64,000 nt of DNA from Candidatus Hadarchaeota archaeon (lineage in GTDB: Archaea > CAYQAE01 > CAYVLA01): the NCBI GenBank assembly GCA_964621445.1, contig CAZUNO010000004.1, positions 109,413 to 173,412 on the forward strand, read 5' to 3'. Position numbers and translations under genes: made by a program. How positions within the stretch are numbered: position 1 is the stretch's first letter; each line of letters starts with the position of its first letter. Under the pieces are notes generated by a model that saw nothing but the letters and a program-made list of their open reading frames with translations, did not search any database and was not told the DNA's origin. This document shows, in pieces, positions 11,810 through 61,063 of this stretch.

Positions 11810-13015
11810 TTATTTTTTCCAGAAGTCTGCCGGCATGGTTTCCGGCTCGCCCTCCAGTTCAAGCTCCACCACGGTGTCCTTGGGGTCCGGGGCCTCCTGG
11901 GGAAGACCCTTAACGAAGGCTCTGTCCGCGGATTGTTCCACATCCAGCTCCCGTCCAGAGGCAAGCATCCGGGCTCCTGTTATCCGGTTTTTTATACCCG
12001 CCAGAGTCATCTCGGTTCCTGGCCAGCACGTGATGTGGATATAGACTTTATTTCCCTTGGCCGTAACATGTCCCACATGCCGCTGGGAAAAGGGAGCCGA
12101 TCCTGCGCCGTAAATCGACTCCTGGTTTACCTTGATCCAGTCACCGATTTCCCTCAGCCTCCTTGCCTGGAGCTGTGGAATCGTCCCGTCGGCCTTCGGC
12201 CCCACGTTTAGGAGAAAGTTCCCGTTTCCCGAGACACATTTGACCAGATTTCTGACCAGCTGCATGGATGATTTTAAATTAGGATCTCCTGGGTGATAGC
12301 CCCACCAGAGATCATCCATGGTCATGCAGCTTTCCCAGGGCCTGTTTTTCCCCTCGATTTTCTGTTCCGGGGTCTCCAAATCCCCGGGAATGCCCGAACG
12401 ATTATTGATTATGATATCCGGCTGAAGAGATCTGACCCGGTTATTTAGTTCCTCAGCCCTCCAGTCCTCTGCCGTGTGGGGCCAGGAGCCATCATACCAC
12501 AGTATATCTATCCTATCATACTTGGTCATCAGCTCTTCTACCTGGGCATGGACATAATCAACAAACTCCCTCCATCCCTGGGGATCCTTTTCTGGCCCTT
12601 TCCAGTATGCCGGCCATCTCCAGTCAAGAAGAGAATAATAGAAGCCGATACGCATATCAGCTTCCCTACACGCATCGACGTACTCCGATATGAAGTCACG
12701 GCCGGAAGCCATCTTGGGAGCAGTGAAGTCCGAAACGTCGCTGTCCCAAAGCGAAAAACCGTCATGATGCCTTGTTGTCAGCACAATGTATTTCATACCT
12801 GCATTCTTGGCCTTTGATACCCATTCTGTTGCATCAAAATTCTGGGGATCAAACCTATGGGCGAGCTTAGCATATTCGGATTTAGGTATTCTCTCGCATT
12901 GCATAATCCACTCGCCGCGAGCTGGAATAGCATATAGCCCCCAGTGTATAAACATACCAAACCTGGCCTTGGTCCACCATTTCATCCTTTCCGGAACCTC
13001 GTATTCATCTGCCAT
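11810..13015 (-). CDS. Alpha-L-fucosidase (GH29)
   Basis: ARFGMFIHWGLY, AGMKYIVLTTRHHDGF, nucleophile motif ILWYDG, NFLLNVGP. Confidence 0.93.
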   Translation of the reverse strand: MADEYEVPERMKWWTKARFGMFIHWGLYAIPARGEWIMQCERIPKSEYAKLAHRFDPQNFDATEWVSKAKNAGMKYIVLTTRHHDGFSLWDSDVSDFTAPKMASGRDFISEYVDACREADMRIGFYYSLLDWRWPAYWKGPEKDPQGWREFVDYVHAQVEELMTKYDRIDILWYDGSWPHTAEDWRAEELNNRVRSLQPDIIINNRSGIPGDLETPEQKIEGKNRPWESCMTMDDLWWGYHPGDPNLKSSMQLVRNLVKCVSGNGNFLLNVGPKADGTIPQLQARRLREIGDWIKVNQESIYGAGSAPFSQRHVGHVTAKGNKVYIHITCWPGTEMTLAGIKNRITGARMLASGRELDVEQSADRAFVKGLPQEAPDPKDTVVELELEGEPETMPADFWKK

Positions 13016-54648: not shown

Positions 54649-55809
54649 ATGAGCGGAGATATTGATCAAATTCTCGATAAGTTAAAGGTGGACGGGGAAT
54701 CCCGCGAGCCTGAGGATGCCGATGTATTGGGCCCATCGGAAGGAGCAGACGATGAGTTGGAGTCCGTTCTCCGGCAGACAATGGCCGAAATTCTGGTTGT
54801 AGGGGTTGGCGGAGCAGGGGGCAACACGGTAACCCGTCTTTTGGATATTGGACTACAAGACGTGGAATCGGTAGTCATGAACACCGATGCCCAGGCGTTG
54901 GTATACGCAGATGCAGGAAGAAAGATGCTGCTGGGTAAGGAAACCACCGAGGGAATGGGAGCCGGGAATAACCCAGAAGTCGGTGAACAATCCGCAATGG
55001 AGACCGTTCAAGATATCAAGGACGTGGTTGATGGCAAGGATCTGGTCTTCGTTACCTGTGGACTTGGTGGAGGGACGGGAACCGGGGCCATCCCCGTGGT
55101 CGCCAAGGAAGCACACGAGGCAAATGCCTTGACCATTGCCGTGGTTACCTTTCCCTTCAAGATGGAGGGCCGGGTAAGGACGGAGAACTCAAAGGTTGGA
55201 CTGGCCAAGCTAATGGACTGTTGTGATTCGGTTATCGTTGTTCCCAATGACAAGCTTCTAGAACTTGCCCCTGGCGTACCCATAAACACCGCTTTCAAGA
55301 TATCGGACGAGGTTCTACTCAAGATAATAGTTGGTATGTCGGAGCTAATCGTTAAGCCTGGACTAGTTAACCTGGACCTCGCAGATCTCAGGAAGATACT
55401 GAAAAGCAGTGGAGCGGCCTTAATAGGTCTCGGAGAGGCATCCGGGAAGGACAAATCAAAGCGCGCTGCATTGGACGTATTGAACAGCCCCCTTCTTGAC
55501 GTCGATATCTCCAATGGAAAGGGAGCCATCGTCAATGTCGTTTCCAGCATGGATGTCACATTGCTGGACGTTGAGAATATAGTGAAAATGGTTGGCGATA
55601 AGCTGAACTCGGAGGCGGAGATCATTTGGGGAGCCCAGGTCGACCAGGAAATGAAGGACACGGTGAGAGTGCTCATTGTGATCTCTGGATTGACCCTTTC
55701 CGATAAGTTTCTAGCTCCTCCATCAGAGGTTACAGAGGAAGAGGAAATAGAGGGCAAAAGTTCTGCCGATATGCTGAGCGGCGTATCATCAATGAGCTGG
55801 CTGTCCTGA
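54649..55809 (+). CDS. ftsZ: Cell division protein FtsZ
   Basis: GVGGAGGN, NTDAQ, GAGNNP, GLGGGTGTG, PF..EG, T7 loop NLDLAD, IWGA. Confidence 0.95.
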   Translation: MSGDIDQILDKLKVDGESREPEDADVLGPSEGADDELESVLRQTMAEILVVGVGGAGGNTVTRLLDIGLQDVESVVMNTDAQALVYADAGRKMLLGKETTEGMGAGNNPEVGEQSAMETVQDIKDVVDGKDLVFVTCGLGGGTGTGAIPVVAKEAHEANALTIAVVTFPFKMEGRVRTENSKVGLAKLMDCCDSVIVVPNDKLLELAPGVPINTAFKISDEVLLKIIVGMSELIVKPGLVNLDLADLRKILKSSGAALIGLGEASGKDKSKRAALDVLNSPLLDVDISNGKGAIVNVVSSMDVTLLDVENIVKMVGDKLNSEAEIIWGAQVDQEMKDTVRVLIVISGLTLSDKFLAPPSEVTEEEEIEGKSSADMLSGVSSMSWLS

Positions 55810-55810
55810 T

Positions 55811-55987
55811 CTAACCGGAACCTGATTCCAGGAGAACGGGACAGGTGAGGGTATCGCTATACAGCCATCTTCTCCCACATTTATCGCAATCATAATACGT
55901 CTTCCCGTCGATATAATCCCAACGATCGTCATTAAGGTCAACCTCGGTTAGCTTGCCGCCGCACATAACGCACTTCTTGCTCGACAT
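55811..55987 (-). CDS. Small zinc-ribbon protein (58 aa)
   Basis: Below the ORF-track cutoff. Manual translation MSSKKCVMCGGKLTEVDLNDDRWDYIDGKTYYDCDKCGRRWLYSDTLTCPVLLESGSG; GAGGA SD upstream. Confidence 0.7.
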   Translation of the reverse strand: MSSKKCVMCGGKLTEVDLNDDRWDYIDGKTYYDCDKCGRRWLYSDTLTCPVLLESGSG

Positions 55988-56130
55988 ATTGGAATCCTCT
56001 TATCGGATTCATCCCTTGGATCGCTCTTAACTCATTTGCCAAACGGAAAAATAGAATGTAGAATTGTACGAATTTGGATCGAAATTCAACCTATCCCAAT
56101 TTATTAGTTTGGGGGATATGATATGTGTAG

Positions 56131-57858
56131 ATGCAATTATGCATTGTTGATCTATACACGGACGAACCTGCTGGGCTAGGTGTTCCTCCCTATTTAGGAA
56201 CCATGCAAAGATATGTTTTTGGGGCAGCGAAGAGCTCGGGTCACCAGCCGGTATATCTTACCATTGATGATGTTAGAGAGAGCCAAGGAAAAGACTGCCA
56301 AAATATCAACCTCACACCAAATTCAGATGATGCTCTGTCCCATATTCGTCAATCGCCCATCGTTATCATCCTTGGAGGAGTGCACACCCCCGGAAAATAT
56401 CTCAGGGCGGAGCCTGGAACCCCCAAGGAGATTAGGGAGATTATTTCCCTCGCCCAAGGAAGGGTTTTGGTTGGGGGTCCTCTAGCCCATGGGACCATGG
56501 GAGGGGGGAGGGCCTTTCCTTCTACAGGGATTGCGTTGGGAAACTCGGCACAACTGATTGACGGAGATCCTGAAGCTTTCATAAGTGACCTATTTGAGTC
56601 GAATACCCCACCTAATTGCCCCAAATATCGAAGTTATTCTGAGCTGAAAAAGTTAGCTATTTGGGGAACGGGAATTATCAAGCAGATCAATCTTGGACCG
56701 GATACAATCGCCGAGATCGAGACCTCCCGAGGCTGTAGTAGAGCCCTGGTTGGGGGTTGCTCATTTTGCTCAGAATGCTCGCGCTACGGTCTCCCTGAGT
56801 TCAGGCCTGTGGATGATATATACGCTGAAGTAAAGGCCTTGAGAAAAGAAGGCGTAAGAAACTTCAGGTTGGGCAGACAGTCGTGTTTCTTTTCCTACGG
56901 TGCTTCGGGTATTGGTGAATCCGAGATCCCGGTTCCAGATCCAAGCTCCATCAGAAAGATCCTTTCAGCCTGCTCAAGCCTGTCATTAAATTCTCTTCAC
57001 ATTGATAATGTGAATCCGGCTGTTGTTGCAGCATATCCTGAGGAATCGGCTGAGATAGTCGATATTATCGTTGAACACTGTACTCCGGGAAATGTTGCCG
57101 CATTAGGAATTGAATCGGCGGACCCCGCGGTGATTTCCAAGAATAACCTAAAATCGAGTCCTAAGGAATCCTTGGATGCAATTCGCCTCATATGCAAGCA
57201 AGGGAATCAAATTGGCTCGAATGGACAGCCCTGCTTCCTTCCCGGGATAAACTTTGTATTGGGTCTTCCCGGGGAGACCAAGAGGACCTACGAGCTAAAC
57301 ATGAACTTTCTTAAGAGCATATTGGATGAAGATCTCCCCGTTAGGCGAATAAACATCAGGGATGTAATTCCAGTACCTGGCACCCCTCTATTTGATCAAA
57401 AATGGAACAGAAAGGCGTACCGCGAATCGGGCCGAAGTTTCAAGAAAGAGGTGAGGGAGAGTATTGACCGGCCAATGCTTCGGAGGGTTTTTCCAACAGG
57501 TCGGATAATTAGGGGTGTGGTCTCTGAATCTAGGGAGGGGTCAGTTTCCTTCTGTAGATTTCCGGGGAGTTATCCGATAATTCTGGGCGTTTATGGTGAA
57601 ATAGAGCTGCGGCAGGTGTTAGATGCAATCGTGGTTTCCCATGGATTCAGGTCCCTGACGGCGCTCAAATTTCCTCTGGACATAAACCGATGTCAAATGA
57701 AGGCCATCACTCAGATACGGGGTATAGGAAAAAAGAGGGCTGCAAAGATATTTCGATCCCGTCCAATAGCTTCTTTCCAAGATTTGGAGGAAGCCCTTCA
57801 ACCCGATCCTCCCTACTCGGCCCTAGAACTCCTGGCTAGGGCAGCATTGCTGGAATAG
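56131..57858 (+). CDS. Archaeal radical SAM protein with C-terminal helix-hairpin-helix
   Basis: DLYTDEPAGLGVPPY, ETSRGC......CSFC, HIDNVNP, GINFVLGLPGET, RRINIR, IRGIGKKRA. Confidence 0.88.
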   Translation: MQLCIVDLYTDEPAGLGVPPYLGTMQRYVFGAAKSSGHQPVYLTIDDVRESQGKDCQNINLTPNSDDALSHIRQSPIVIILGGVHTPGKYLRAEPGTPKEIREIISLAQGRVLVGGPLAHGTMGGGRAFPSTGIALGNSAQLIDGDPEAFISDLFESNTPPNCPKYRSYSELKKLAIWGTGIIKQINLGPDTIAEIETSRGCSRALVGGCSFCSECSRYGLPEFRPVDDIYAEVKALRKEGVRNFRLGRQSCFFSYGASGIGESEIPVPDPSSIRKILSACSSLSLNSLHIDNVNPAVVAAYPEESAEIVDIIVEHCTPGNVAALGIESADPAVISKNNLKSSPKESLDAIRLICKQGNQIGSNGQPCFLPGINFVLGLPGETKRTYELNMNFLKSILDEDLPVRRINIRDVIPVPGTPLFDQKWNRKAYRESGRSFKKEVRESIDRPMLRRVFPTGRIIRGVVSESREGSVSFCRFPGSYPIILGVYGEIELRQVLDAIVVSHGFRSLTALKFPLDINRCQMKAITQIRGIGKKRAAKIFRSRPIASFQDLEEALQPDPPYSALELLARAALLE

Positions 57859-57997
57859 CAAGCTCTTTCTCTCATTATATTATTATATCATACTAATACA
57901 CTTTATTGACGCTTTATTGATCTTGCTTCCAATTATTACCCCATACTACTTTTACGCCTTAACATGTTTCTTCATGTCCCATACCAAAATAGCTCCT

Positions 57998-58861
57998 CTA
58001 GGCGTCAATATTCTCCCTGGGATGGACATCAGATAGTGCCCTGAGCCTCTCGGATGTTACATGAGTGTATATTTGTGTGGTTGCCAGGCTCGCATGTCCT
58101 AGAAGCTCTTGGATGGCCCTTATATCTACATCATTTTCCAGCATGTGGGTTGCGAATGAGTGCCTCAATACATGCGGCGTTACATTCTTCCCTATATTCG
58201 CTTTATGTGCATACTTCTTAATGAGTTTCTGCACATATCGGGCGCTAAGAGAGTCCCCTGAACGCCCCGTAAATAGGTATTCAGATGGCGTCCTACGCTC
58301 CTTCAAGTACCATGCAATGTCTGATGCAGCGTGATTGGAAAGTATCACTAAGCGATCCTTCGCTCCCTTACCACTCTTTATCATAGCCGTTTTTCCATCC
58401 AGGTCGATTTCATCAATCTTCATGTTTACGGCCTCGGATACTCGGGCTCCGGTAGCATAGATGAATTCAATTAGACAGTGATCCCTAGTATTGTTGCTAG
58501 ATGCCTCAAGAAGTGCCTCCAATTCTTTCTTGGTCAAAAATGTAGGTAGCTTTTTAGGCCTCTTAGGAAGCTGTAGATCCTCCGCAGGATCCTCTTCCAT
58601 GGCTTCATTTTGCATAAGTGCCTTGAAAAAAGCTTTAATGGCGTTAACCTGGCTGTATGTAGTTGCATTCGTCAAATGCTTTCTTCTCTTAGTCTTAAGC
58701 AGGTAACGTCGGAGGTCAGAACGCCCTATTTCCTGGGGGGGTCCATTAAACCACCGAGCAAGTTCCCTTATCTGCAGTAGGTAGCGTTCCCTCGTCCGAG
58801 GGGAGTAACCCAGGAGCTCCCAATGGCTGTCGGCTATGTCCAATGCTTCCTTGAATCGCAT
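57998..58861 (-). CDS. xerA: Tyrosine recombinase XerA
   Basis: TGARVSE, GKGAKDR, TPHVLRHSFATHMLE, IQELLGHASLATTQIYTHV; N-terminal SAM-like domain. Confidence 0.9.
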   Translation of the reverse strand: MRFKEALDIADSHWELLGYSPRTRERYLLQIRELARWFNGPPQEIGRSDLRRYLLKTKRRKHLTNATTYSQVNAIKAFFKALMQNEAMEEDPAEDLQLPKRPKKLPTFLTKKELEALLEASSNNTRDHCLIEFIYATGARVSEAVNMKIDEIDLDGKTAMIKSGKGAKDRLVILSNHAASDIAWYLKERRTPSEYLFTGRSGDSLSARYVQKLIKKYAHKANIGKNVTPHVLRHSFATHMLENDVDIRAIQELLGHASLATTQIYTHVTSERLRALSDVHPRENIDA

Positions 58862-58881
58862 TTATATGTCCTCAAGGGTTA

Positions 58882-58909
58882 AGTTCGCTAAGTCATAGCT
58901 TAGCGAACC
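58882..58909. other. dif-like Xer recombination/binding site
   Basis: AGTTCGCTAAG-TCATAG-CTTAGCGAACC: perfect 10-bp inverted arms, 6-bp spacer, 28 bp in total, 20 bp upstream of the xerA start. Confidence 0.7.
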
Positions 58910-59004
58910 TTTTTATGTCTTTTCATTAAGATAGGCCCCCAAATAATACCAATTTTAATCAAATACCCCACCTATTTAGACAAAACATGCTCATTTAATG
59001 GCAT

Positions 59005-59541
59005 TTACCCCAGCTCGGAAATCTCATCCAGATCCATCATCATCCACCAGGAGTAATCTACCCCCTCTTTGCTTCTGAAATAGCGGAAAAGGGGGCGACC
59101 AAACGCTTCCTCTGCCCTTTCATTTAGTGAGTTTAGTTTGTCTCTCACGCTTTCCGTTCGAGAGTAATCCAGTTCATCCACCAGCCTGCTGCTGTTCTCA
59201 TGACCCCTCTTAAGCATGAGACGGAGCACTTCCTCATCCTTCTTGCTATTTATAATCTCACGAAGTTGACCCAGGTCATCGTCATCTTTTTGAACTGGGG
59301 GCGTTGCATCTTCAATTTCCTCATCGGATGCGCCATCTAGGGCGCTTAATATGGTCTTAACATCCCTTCTTATCTCATATATTGCTATATCACTACTACC
59401 TATGTCAAGGGTAAGGTAGTAATCTATTGCATCCCGGATAATCCTGGAAAGGTTTCTTGACCTCGCCTTCAAGTCCGATACCTGATCCCTTCTTAACGTA
59501 ATGCATACCTTCTTAAAATTCCCGTTCGTCACAAAGCACAC
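59005..59541 (-). CDS. Ribbon-helix-helix (CopG-like) DNA-binding protein with C-terminal winged-helix-like domain
   Basis: KKVCITLRRDQVSDLKARSRNLSRIIRDAIDYYL fits the RHH pattern, followed by an acidic linker and a helical C-domain. Confidence 0.65.
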   Translation of the reverse strand: MCFVTNGNFKKVCITLRRDQVSDLKARSRNLSRIIRDAIDYYLTLDIGSSDIAIYEIRRDVKTILSALDGASDEEIEDATPPVQKDDDDLGQLREIINSKKDEEVLRLMLKRGHENSSRLVDELDYSRTESVRDKLNSLNERAEEAFGRPLFRYFRSKEGVDYSWWMMMDLDEISELG

Positions 59542-59543
59542 CA

Positions 59544-59803
59544 GTATGATTGAGTATTATTACAGTATATAACTGTTGCGGCGTATCATTATGATATTAT
59601 CATATTAGCATAAAACGGCAACGTATGATGTAGTATTACTATATTTTTCCCTATCACACCCAAAAAGGTGCTATAGTATGATAAAGTATGATTTAGGAAT
59701 AGCCGGCCAGAATTTTGCAAAAGTGTCGGGGTATGATATAGTATTACCCTTGATGCCAAGAACCCGATCCCGGTCACGCGGCCAATAAGCGGGATGGTAT
59801 GAT
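59544..59803 (+). repeat. Array of GTATGAT-N3-GTAT(T/G)A(T/C) heptad pairs in AT-rich intergenic DNA
   Basis: Pairs at 59544/59554, 59623/59633, 59676/59686, 59731/59741; single heptad at 59797; variant GTATCAT at 59583. Confidence 0.8.
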
Positions 59804-59902
59804 TGGTGCATACTTTGAGAGATGCTCTTCCGACAATAGACCAACGCCGCCTCTGGAGATAATATTTTAATTACCCGTGCCCCCCCATGCAATGGAAATG
59901 AT

Positions 59903-61063
59903 GTGGAGATGAAGCGGTTTTATAATGCCCCATCAGAGACAGTAAAATTTGTAGACACTACTTTGAGAGATGGAGAGCAAACTGCCGGAGTGGTCTTCTC
60001 CAACGACGAGAAAATCCAGATAGCTCGCATGCTGGACGAGGTTGGAGCCCATCAAATCGAGGCGGGCGTTCCCGCCATGGGGGGCGATGAAAAGGATGTC
60101 ATCTCCAAAATATCGGCACTGGGTTTGGAGGCTTCAATACTTGGTTGGAATCGGGCCGTGGTGAGCGATGTTGAGAGCTCCATAGATTGCGGAGTAGATG
60201 CGGTTGCGGTTTCAATATCCACTTCCGATATCCACATAAAATACAAGTTACAGAAGAACAGGGACTGGGTACTTGAGCATATGGTCGAGGCAACCGAATA
60301 CGCTAAGGACCACGGTCTATATGTCTCAGTAAATGCGGAGGACTCCTCCAGAACACCCGATGATTTCCTAATAAAATTCACATCGGCTGCAAAGAATGCC
60401 GGCGCGGACAGGGTCAGATTCTGTGATACATTGGGCACAATGGAGCCCTTTCAAGTATATGAAAGGGTCCAGAACCTAATTCAGAAGACCGGAGTGCCGG
60501 TCGAAATGCATATGCATAATGACTTCGGTCTGGCAGCCGCCAACTCCTTGGCTGGGGTTAAAGCAGGAGCAACCTTCGTAAACGTGACCGTCAACGGTCT
60601 CGGTGAGAGAGCAGGGAACGCGCCATTGGAAGAGGTGGCCATGGCACTTAGATTGATCCTAAATCACAACGTTGATCTTCGGGCCAAGAAGTTCAGGGAG
60701 CTATCCGAACTGGTGGCGAAGGCCTCTGCTAGGGACATACCCAAGTGGAAAGCCATAGTAGGAAGATCCGTCTTTGCCGCAGAGTCCGGGATCCATGCGG
60801 ATGGACTGCTTAAGAATCCAATAAATTATGAAGCCTTCTCGCCCCAGGACGTGGGCCTCACCAGGCAGATAGTGATAGGCAAACATTCGGGCAAGCACTC
60901 AATTAAGAACAAGTTCAAGGAGTATGGCATTGAGCTTGATGATGAGATGACAAGTAAGATTCTCGAGCGGGTGAGGTCAGAGAGCGTCAAGAGAAAGAGA
61001 GCGCTTTTCGACAAGGAAATTATGTTGATCTACGAGGATTTAACGGAAGACGATCATCAATAG
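59903..61063 (+). CDS. nifV: Homocitrate synthase-like DRE-TIM acyltransferase (NifV/AksA family)
   Basis: DTTLRDGEQ, IEAG, EDSSR, HMHNDFG, NGLGERAGN, ESGIHADG, GKHSG; no LeuA regulatory domain. Confidence 0.8.
   Translation: MEMKRFYNAPSETVKFVDTTLRDGEQTAGVVFSNDEKIQIARMLDEVGAHQIEAGVPAMGGDEKDVISKISALGLEASILGWNRAVVSDVESSIDCGVDAVAVSISTSDIHIKYKLQKNRDWVLEHMVEATEYAKDHGLYVSVNAEDSSRTPDDFLIKFTSAAKNAGADRVRFCDTLGTMEPFQVYERVQNLIQKTGVPVEMHMHNDFGLAAANSLAGVKAGATFVNVTVNGLGERAGNAPLEEVAMALRLILNHNVDLRAKKFRELSELVAKASARDIPKWKAIVGRSVFAAESGIHADGLLKNPINYEAFSPQDVGLTRQIVIGKHSGKHSIKNKFKEYGIELDDEMTSKILERVRSESVKRKRALFDKEIMLIYEDLTEDDHQ

Follow-up and report, generated by a model that had tools for sequence, protein, structure and literature searches.

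A conserved RHH-like gene, a dif-like site and xerA flanked by GTATGA site arrays in a Candidatus Hadarchaeota genome: a candidate Xer/dif module

Structure of the locus

We analysed a stretch of 64,000 nucleotides (below, the window) from the genome of a Candidatus Hadarchaeota archaeon (assembly GCA_964621445.1, contig CAZUNO010000004.1, positions 109,413 to 173,412 of the forward strand), in which the tyrosine recombinase gene xerA lies next to a gene for a ribbon-helix-helix (RHH)-like/winged-helix protein. Together with a dif-like palindrome between them, the two genes form a compact unit of about 2 kb that carries arrays of sites with a GTATGA core on both outer flanks. The arrays are real, conserved and nearly exclusive to the dif/xerA locus; what the unit might do as a whole is discussed below in more tentative terms. 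The window stops at the end of its contig, which is 173 kb long, and the dif/xerA locus is situated 4-5 kb from this end; the genome assembly amounts to 3.2 Mb in 89 contigs and is 96% complete. The features of the unit, in window coordinates, are the following:

57878-57903, minus strand: downstream composite site, AAGTG-N5-GTATGAT-N3-ATAATA; 27.2 bits with a weight matrix made from relatives only
57998-58861, minus strand: xerA, tyrosine recombinase; NF040815 (XerA_Arch) 264.2 bits, cut-off 220
58880-58911, unstranded: dif-like site; arms 58883-58892 and 58899-58908, spacer 6 nt
58908-58918, minus strand: putative TATA-like box of xerA, abutting a dif arm and preceding the xerA ATG by about 50 nt; consensus ATATAA in the 8-locus alignment
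58958-58989, minus strand: conserved block after the stop of the RHH-like gene, a T-rich run followed by TAG-N3-GG-N-TAT; columns invariant
59005-59541, minus strand: RHH-like/winged-helix gene; 178 aa from GTG 59541, likely start GTG 59532 (175 aa)
59534-59823, plus strand: upstream array; 10 matrix hits of at least 9 bits, six of them with GTATGAT cores, mostly reading away from the RHH-like gene
59565-59577, minus strand: TATA-like box of the RHH-like gene, AACAGTTATATAC; consensus of the relatives AACATTTATC; kept in 8 loci

The dif-like site and XerA

The dif-like palindrome, GTTCGCTAAG-N6-CTTAGCGAAC at 58883-58908, has 10-nt arms that are 100% complementary and a 6-nt spacer, the arms extending to 12-13 nt if imperfect pairing is allowed. 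Even with three mismatches allowed, no second match turns up in the 3.2-Mb genome (a control search with the reversed pattern gave 0 hits). Among the related loci it occurs once per locus in 10 of the 10 that contain the gap between the RHH-like gene and xerA, as well as in L017, and it always stands 25-50 nt ahead of the xerA start. Throughout these 11 loci the arm on the side of the RHH-like gene is invariant, the other arm shows 0-3 changes and the spacer is variable; judged by its sequence, such a combination of invariant or near-invariant arms with a free spacer is the pattern expected for the core site of a recombinase.

The recombinase itself matches Pfam Phage_integrase (7.4e-48) and contains the SAM-like N-domain. 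Its HxxR motif and C-terminal tyrosine, the catalytic residues of tyrosine recombinases, are invariant across 8 orthologues. The gene is the only one in the genome that scores above the XerA cut-off, the other integrase genes being a 180-bit integrase on contig C25 and a broken copy on contig C61. The latter contig (G000:C61:2443-5865, locus L034) carries another XerA-like gene, with about 50% identity, in two pieces of 149 and 118 aa; because it is flanked by two toxin-antitoxin-like pairs, each comprising a small RHH-like or AbrB-like open reading frame (ORF) and a PIN-like ORF, this split gene is probably a remnant of a mobile element.

The gap between the RHH-like gene and xerA holds three conserved elements, namely the T-rich run after the RHH-like gene's stop, the TAG-N3-GG-N-TAT block and the ATATAA-like box that abuts the invariant dif arm. 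The first two could possibly represent a terminator or an additional protein site. As for the third, the dif-like site sits between this TATA-like box and the xerA start, and we consider it probable from this arrangement that xerA has a promoter of its own with dif placed inside it; since dif lies in this position, XerA bound there would repress xerA too. The cumulative GC skew along the 173-kb contig is flat, without a turn at the dif/xerA locus.

Site arrays on both flanks of the unit

In the window, the heptad GTATGAT is matched 16 times, where 7.55 matches would be expected, and one of 100 shuffles reached as many. Six of the 16 copies are at 59544-59803, all on the plus strand (starts 59544, 59623, 59676, 59686, 59731 and 59797), and, with 268 copies genome-wide, this is the sole 300-bp span that has at least three. 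The direct array reported at these positions in the first-pass annotation of the sequence is thus borne out. The longer repeat unit is the 17-nt GTATGAT-N3-GTATTAC, and the 16-mer GTATGAT-N3-GTATTA has three exact copies in the genome, all in the upstream array. The same annotation had also described an inverted copy and a variant heptad that face this array. The inverted copy ATCATAC at 57887-57893 is real, being on the minus strand within the best matrix hit of the genome, whereas ATAATAC at 58943-58949 is present but lacks support (8 copies against 6.06 expected, a score below 9 bits and columns unconserved in the 8-locus alignment). A GTATGAT pair at 12491-12521 on the minus strand, with its members 24 nt apart, was set aside as chance, as it is isolated, has no composite features and reaches 11 bits at best.

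The alignment of 67 sites produced a composite of about 26 nt, (A/C)(A/G)GCG-N5-RGTATGAY-N3-RTMATA, whose boxes are spaced by roughly 10 nt and which is the same on both flanks, including the AAGYG box. Its core, GTATGA/TCATAC, clusters in every locus within the 300 bp upstream of the RHH-like gene and the 200 bp beyond xerA. Over 8 non-redundant loci (the near-duplicates L015, L025, L026, L028 and L030 were dropped, and also L029) the counts of GTATGA/TCATAC were as follows:

upstream of the RHH-like gene: 32 hits in 2100 bp, 15.2 per kb
downstream of xerA: 21 hits in 1262 bp, 16.6 per kb
rest of the 8 loci: 16 hits in 80,636 bp, 0.20 per kb
genome average: 0.36 per kb

The core hexamer is thus about 80-fold enriched on both flanks; the compared loci are kin, so that the counts and Poisson values overstate independence, and the site sequences differ between the loci. 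Both strands of the entire genome were scanned with a weight matrix of 52 sites taken from the relatives only, the window being excluded. The six top hits are all at this locus, with 18.9-27.2 bits, the best hit elsewhere has 17.9 bits, and hits of at least 18 bits are confined to 2 kb. The best of all is the site at 57878-57903(-), downstream of xerA (27.2 bits; 24.4 bits in a separate scan of the window). Half of the window hits of at least 9 bits (11/22) fall within 57800-59950.

Each locus has 3-6 copies of the core upstream of the RHH-like gene and 1-6 copies beyond the 3' end of xerA, and the upstream array starts about 640 bp, the downstream one about 980 bp, away from the dif-like palindrome. 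The cores point away from the unit in 33 of 38 cases upstream and in 13 of 21 downstream, several of the others forming GTATGA-N5-TCATAC palindromes. In five of six loci (the window, L014, L017, L022 and L027) the downstream sites are located between convergent gene ends. The proximal upstream site, in turn, stands between the TATA-like box and the start codon of the RHH-like gene, and its position is kept in 8 loci, where the promoter follows one order: a AACATTTATC-like box, then, within about 10 nt at most, TCATAC-N3/4-ATACTACC, GGTG and the start codon. As a whole, we regard the GTATGA arrays as functional sites with little doubt.

The RHH-like/winged-helix protein

The protein encoded in the window has 16 full-length homologues that are 60-70% identical to it; its start aligns to the methionine of 15 of them, and GTG 59532 is likely to be the true start. 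The layout comprises an RHH-like N-terminus, an invariant DIGSSDIAxYExRRD helix, a variable linker, a winged-helix C-terminus and a conserved acidic tail. In the presumed N-terminal strand K-V-C-I-T-L-R the residues K11, C13, T15 and R17 are invariant and V, I or L stand between them (16-sequence alignment). Residues 90-175 are modelled by AlphaFold2 (AF2) as a winged helix with a predicted local distance difference test score (pLDDT) of 85-92. By VIA-align this part scores Z 7.3-8.6 with a root-mean-square deviation of 1.8-3.4 over 64-83 residues, ScpB, TFE-alpha, ArsR, MarR and OmpR-type proteins being tied, and the Foldseek E-values are 0.03-0.3. According to the model, then, the C-terminal domain has a winged-helix fold, the subfamily of which cannot be assigned, and a two-domain DNA-binding protein is plausible. 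The first-pass annotation had proposed just such an RHH/winged-helix-turn-helix protein, and its winged-helix half is confidently modelled, while the RHH half depends on RHH_1 matches of nine among the 16 members, all of them weak, with an E-value of 0.0048 (under the cut-off) at best.

Analysis of sequence databases points to an orphan, lineage-specific family. A phmmer search of 1.84 billion representatives recovered the protein's own cluster alone, a word-indexed search found 23 proteins, 56-94% identical and all without an assigned name, and the leads from the ESM Atlas all stayed below 0.9, being archaeal clusters without a name whose proteins are about as long. When 401 genomes were searched with a profile, two weak relatives came up, in G103 and G325 (E 2.6e-7 and 1.6e-5), from another archaeal family; they share the two-domain layout, and their C-terminal domain is matched by hhalign with a probability of 91.7% (E 7.7e-07). 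These distant homologues (L068, G103:C81, 1252-1797, and L069, G325:C21, 1264-1761) contain a C-terminal WW motif as in the window protein, and each is divergent from a small Lys/Glu-rich ORF; one of the two is followed by a tRNA-like sequence.

Conservation among relatives

The RHH-like protein is encoded in three of three genomes of the same family (G001, G002 and G003) and in none of 37 other archaeal genomes covered by a single-sequence search. In G001 and G003 the gene order according to tblastn is lysA, DUF2099, ftsZ, the zinc-ribbon gene, the radical S-adenosylmethionine (SAM) gene, xerA, the RHH-like gene, in some cases the homocitrate synthase gene, and the gene of a flavin adenine dinucleotide (FAD) protein; the contig of G002 carries only xerA and the RHH-like gene. 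Nine metagenome loci were taken as well, of which two are cut and seven extend past the RHH-like gene, and in all seven it is followed by xerA. The adjacency of the two genes, the palindrome and the motif arrays on the outer flanks are found together in 3/3 same-family genomes and in 7/7 metagenome loci with room for them. In L023 the genes on both sides are unrelated, yet the RHH-xerA pair and both arrays are retained. The first-pass annotation had staked its proposal on the RHH gene and repeats recurring beside xerA in close relatives, and so they do in all of these genomes and loci.

In L014 (G003:C14) the homocitrate-synthase-like gene is missing between the RHH-like and FAD genes, the gap there being about 600 bp, and the arrays stay with the RHH-like gene. 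The assemblies of L015, L016, L029, L030 and G001:C66/C3 break inside the RHH-like gene or at most 50 bp from the upstream array, and in G001 the gene is split across two contig ends; these breaks may be due to low coverage or to strains that differ in the variable linker. In contigs of three DNA runs (from one study at a depth of about 3-6, which makes this a weak test), neither variants nor loose ends nor alternative joints were seen.

As to other lineages, a dif-like 10-6-10 palindrome is found directly before the xerA start in L053 (G020:C7) and L056 (G023:C1; 1440-1490), which belong to two unrelated lineages; in L053 it is about 43 nt before xerA and in L056 right after a TATA-like box. 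PadR-like or winged-helix-like ORFs stand beside xerA in four of 11 other loci (L050, L051, L053 and L056), the PadR-like ORF of L056 coming after xerA. Repeat scans of the xerA loci L050, L053 and L056, from three other lineages, revealed no clear arrays, the only signal among the three being in L056, where short matched words flank xerA. The design with a bracketed dif may have arisen more than once, with unrelated DNA-binding proteins.

Neighbouring genes

The unit is bordered by the following genes:

54649-55809, plus strand: ftsZ; TIGR00065 366 bits, cut-off 295.2; Pfam Tubulin and FtsZ_C
55811-55987, minus strand: 58-aa zinc-ribbon-like ORF with four cysteines; weak DUF7129 match, under the cut-off
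56131-57858, plus strand: radical SAM gene, 575 aa; Pfam Radical_SAM 35 bits, cut-off 29.5; convergent with xerA
from 59903: homocitrate-synthase-like gene, divergent

The distance of about 2 kb between ftsZ and xerA given earlier agrees with the 2.19 kb measured from stop to stop. The two genes are close in five of six sufficiently long loci, L023 being the exception; since this proximity is kept among close kin and gone in L023, ftsZ is a context gene and is not counted within the module. The zinc-ribbon-like ORF, wedged between ftsZ and the radical SAM gene, has tblastn matches of 50-57% identity in L014, L017, L022 and L027. The radical SAM gene is a conserved neighbour of xerA in L014, L017, L022, L027 and L028, and in the window 139 bp separate the convergent stops of the two. 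Its product has a helix-hairpin-helix-like C-terminal stretch (HHH_3 match under the cut-off) and, from its sequence, may be a DNA-acting radical SAM enzyme. The protein also has a weak match to a 'DNA modification/repair radical SAM' model, in the tail of that model.

Elsewhere in the genome, contig C1 carries smc (TIGR02169 893.5 bits, cut-off 729.4) together with the adjacent scpA and scpB (40 and 130.8 bits, both above the cut-off). No FtsK_SpoIIIE domain was found in this 96%-complete genome.

Possible functions of the unit

We suppose that the RHH-like/winged-helix protein would bind the composites of about 26 nt, AAGCG-N5-GTATGAY-N3-GTMATA, and consider it probable that it is the factor occupying the arrays. 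At the proximal site the bound protein would repress its own promoter; as this site is between the TATA-like box and the start, the usual position of an archaeal repressor, autorepression appears likely too, if somewhat less so than the binding. The two arrays would then form a nucleoprotein bracket reaching 0.65-1 kb to each side of dif, which could loop out or present dif, aid synapsis, or act as a roadblock on both sides, for example to Smc-ScpAB. Lacking FtsK, the organism would thereby be assisted in resolving dimers. According to the accessible sections of a 2021 review (PMC8371274), archaea have no FtsK, so that the regulation of dimer resolution must differ in them.

An architectural role at dif is favoured by the downstream sites, which are hard to fit to promoter control, as they lie between convergent gene ends in five of six loci and count the best site of the genome among them; with two genes converging, no promoter is expected there in most loci. 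We still hold this role to be possible rather than probable. Its most far-reaching version is rather unlikely in our estimate: the protein and the mirrored arrays would serve as a sequence-specific organiser dedicated to dif, clamping it on both sides so that Smc-ScpAB is stalled or sister dif regions are paired, and would in this way give XerA a bias towards resolution without FtsK, i.e. an archaeal functional counterpart of MatP/matS, XerD/XDS or TrmBL2. Taken together, the best overall explanation of the data is that one archaeal family has passed on, by vertical inheritance, a self-contained Xer/dif module with a protein-bound two-sided bracket around dif, although we give this joint proposal slightly less than an even chance.

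Several points weigh against it. The RHH assignment is weak, and the window's own protein has no Pfam hit at all; the N-terminus of the AF2 monomer is of low confidence, with helices 18-27 and 31-44 present in the model, and a profile search of PDB sequences gave nothing meaningful for this protein. The homologues in G103 and G325 are not beside xerA, which indicates that the protein family is not intrinsically tied to Xer. The orientation of the downstream cores is mixed, 8 of 21 pointing inward, and the arrays, at 0.65-1 kb from dif, are much farther away than the accessory sequences of cer/psi. The module comes from a single family whose members are kin, and the counts therefore overstate independence. 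Finally, in the portions of the T. kodakarensis (Thermococcus kodakarensis) study available to us (PMC11840125), loss of the dif boundary had no discernible phenotype, so the function of a bracket could be subtle.

How the recombination site and direction of XerA are controlled in archaea is named as an open question in the accessible part of the review cited above (PMC8371274). The proposed module is a compact candidate in this respect, with one small protein, one 26-nt site, one dif and one recombinase, and is testable in vitro or in a tractable archaeon. It could show whether dedicated proteins bracket dif, bias recombination to resolution and stop SMC (structural maintenance of chromosomes) complexes. 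Should it prove to be a mere autoregulated operator set, it would still provide a new DNA-binding family with a defined target.

Alternative explanations

The alternative that survives best is that of a plain local transcription factor, an autorepressor (perhaps timed by the cell cycle) of its own gene and indirectly of xerA, with the downstream sites serving transcription through termination, an antisense promoter or the promoter of a neighbour. The proximal site, placed as in classical archaeal repression in 8 loci, speaks for it, as does the fact that the distant homologues adjoin unrelated genes; in L023, moreover, the gene after xerA runs in the same direction, and the downstream gap could hold a promoter there. 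Cell-cycle-timing RHH factors exist in Sulfolobales, where, according to the sections of PMC13199686 at hand, overexpression of aCcr2 lowers xerA transcripts. It is at odds with the downstream sites between convergent stops in the window, L014, L017, L022 and L027, where no promoter is expected, with the genome's strongest site being a downstream one, and with the apparent TATA-like box of xerA itself, which is overlapped by dif and not by GTATGA sites. On balance we judge a purely local regulator somewhat unlikely.

A domesticated or decaying mobile cassette is far less probable. The unit would in that case derive from an ancient plasmid or integrated element that supplied the recombinase, iterons and an RHH protein binding them, the present arrays going back to these iterons or to the ends of the element. 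Plasmid partition and copy control typically involve RHH proteins with arrays of heptads, and the likeness of the unit to such systems, the mirroring of the arrays in the manner of terminal repeats, the integrity of the unit in the different gene neighbourhood of L023 and the other integrase genes of the same genome would all suit an origin of this kind. They are outweighed by the single dif-like site per locus and genome, which leaves no attL/attR pair as in dif-integrated elements, by the presence of the unit in every relative examined and the strong conservation of the protein, and by the sole copy of xerA above the XerA cut-off, which for that reason is taken as the housekeeping one. The GC content of the RHH-like gene and xerA (0.456-0.471) and their GC at third codon positions (GC3) match those of the neighbouring genes, the unit has no replication, partition-ATPase or transfer gene, and the contigs of the three DNA runs, a weak test at their low depth, show no alternative joints. 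With one dif-like site per locus, native composition and a strongly conserved protein, the remnant of a small element integrated at dif, which the first-pass annotation had offered as its alternative, is disfavoured. An IMEX-like element integrated at dif was rejected separately: it needs two flanking dif-like sites and variable presence, and the locus has one site and is present in 3/3 genomes and all metagenome loci with room.

Of similarly low probability is the explanation that the arrays are real but are bound by another factor, such as a nucleoid protein or a different regulator, or act via DNA shape, the neighbouring protein having a different target. The arguments that tie this protein to the sites are indirect, and in the accessible text on T. 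kodakarensis (PMC11840125) the dif boundary relies on a general nucleoid protein and DNA structure, with no dedicated factor. Against this stands the co-occurrence of sites and gene in all loci, including their joint move in L023; the near-confinement of the sites to the locus would suit a dedicated, locally encoded factor, and one site is within the gene's own promoter. An invertible switch or a replication origin or terminus element, with the mirrored arrays as recombination or initiator sites, would accord with mirrored repeats around a recombinase gene and with the AT-rich flanking gaps (GC 0.32-0.40), but is very improbable, given that the unit has the same orientation in all loci retaining their neighbours, with no inverted version or alternative joints seen, that the arrays are unlike the XerA arms, and that no orc1/cdc6 gene lies beside the unit.

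Comparison with known systems

Within the literature covered (subscription journals and supplements were outside it), we found no description of an RHH/winged-helix partner gene or of flanking site arrays at an archaeal dif-xerA locus. Several known systems share individual features with the proposed module. In cer and psi, Xer core sites act with the accessory proteins PepA and ArgR or ArcA, whose accessory sequences of about 200 bp lie on one side, directly beside the core. The likeness would be in the outcome at a Xer core being governed by accessory proteins on nearby DNA, which gives selectivity for resolution without FtsK. A site of the cer/psi type was rejected for the locus, as one-sided accessory sequences beside the core would be expected and here they are on both sides, at about 640 and about 980 bp, and the proteins are unrelated. 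RHH proteins of the Omega (pSM19035) and ParR type use arrays of 7-11-nt repeats, direct and inverted, upstream of their own gene and combine repressor and architectural roles; a small RHH-like protein with repeat arrays upstream of its own gene is what the unit has in common with them, and the extra winged-helix domain and the chromosomal, dif-linked setting set it apart. An RHH partition cassette of this type was rejected as well, because a partner NTPase would be expected in the operon and only xerA follows the gene, with no ATPase or actin-like partner in the unit.

MatP has the RHH fold, marks the dif region and keeps SMC-type complexes off it; the resemblance to MatP/matS would lie in these features, the RHH element of the protein proposed here being putative. 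A MatP/matS-type system was rejected, as its sites would be expected over a large Ter domain and here all hits of at least 18 bits are within 2 kb; no similarity of the RHH-like protein to MatP was detected either by phmmer against the 1.84 billion representatives or by the profile search of PDB sequences. In E. coli, as related in the accessible sections of PMC11840125, MatP is an unloader of SMC-type complexes with sites scattered in ter. As for the aCcr1-3 proteins of Sulfolobales, the available part of PMC13199686 presents them as RHH repressors linked to segregation and division genes, in which they would resemble our RHH-like protein; they are small global regulators with many targets, in contrast to a two-domain protein with one putative target locus.

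A further comparison is with archaeal Xer/dif itself (Cortez et al., 2010, PMC2958812; review PMC8371274), for which a XerA-type recombinase and a single dif site, an imperfect inverted repeat of about 11 nt whose spacer has 6 nt, are expected. The locus likewise has a single recombinase above the XerA cut-off and one inverted repeat, found nowhere else in the genome, with the same spacer length. In Haloferax and Halobacterium dif is just upstream of the xerA operon (PMC11840125, accessible text). In Thermococcales it is away from xerA (PMC2958812, likewise in part), and they differ in this from our locus, where dif is in the 5' region of xerA; the dif arm GTTCGCTAAG is also unlike the T. kodakarensis dif as given in the available text of PMC11840125. 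Those descriptions, so far as the accessible portions go (PMC2958812, PMC8371274), include no dedicated DNA-binding partner gene and no flanking arrays.

Chromosome-domain boundaries at dif are reported for several euryarchaea and explained in one species only, through a general nucleoid protein (PMC11840125, in the sections available). In that species, T. kodakarensis, a TrmBL2-dependent Smc-ScpAB boundary is situated at dif (Yamaura et al., 2025; PMC11840125); the boundary and the stalling of Smc are independent of XerA and of dif itself, and the authors propose that boundaries at dif help dif synapsis or decatenation. The two cases are alike with respect to Smc-ScpAB, as the genes smc, scpA and scpB are present here. 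They differ in that TrmBL2, according to the same sections, has many loci at which it acts as a general nucleoid protein, whereas the protein proposed here is encoded on the spot, is putatively sequence-specific, and has its sites nearly confined to the locus.

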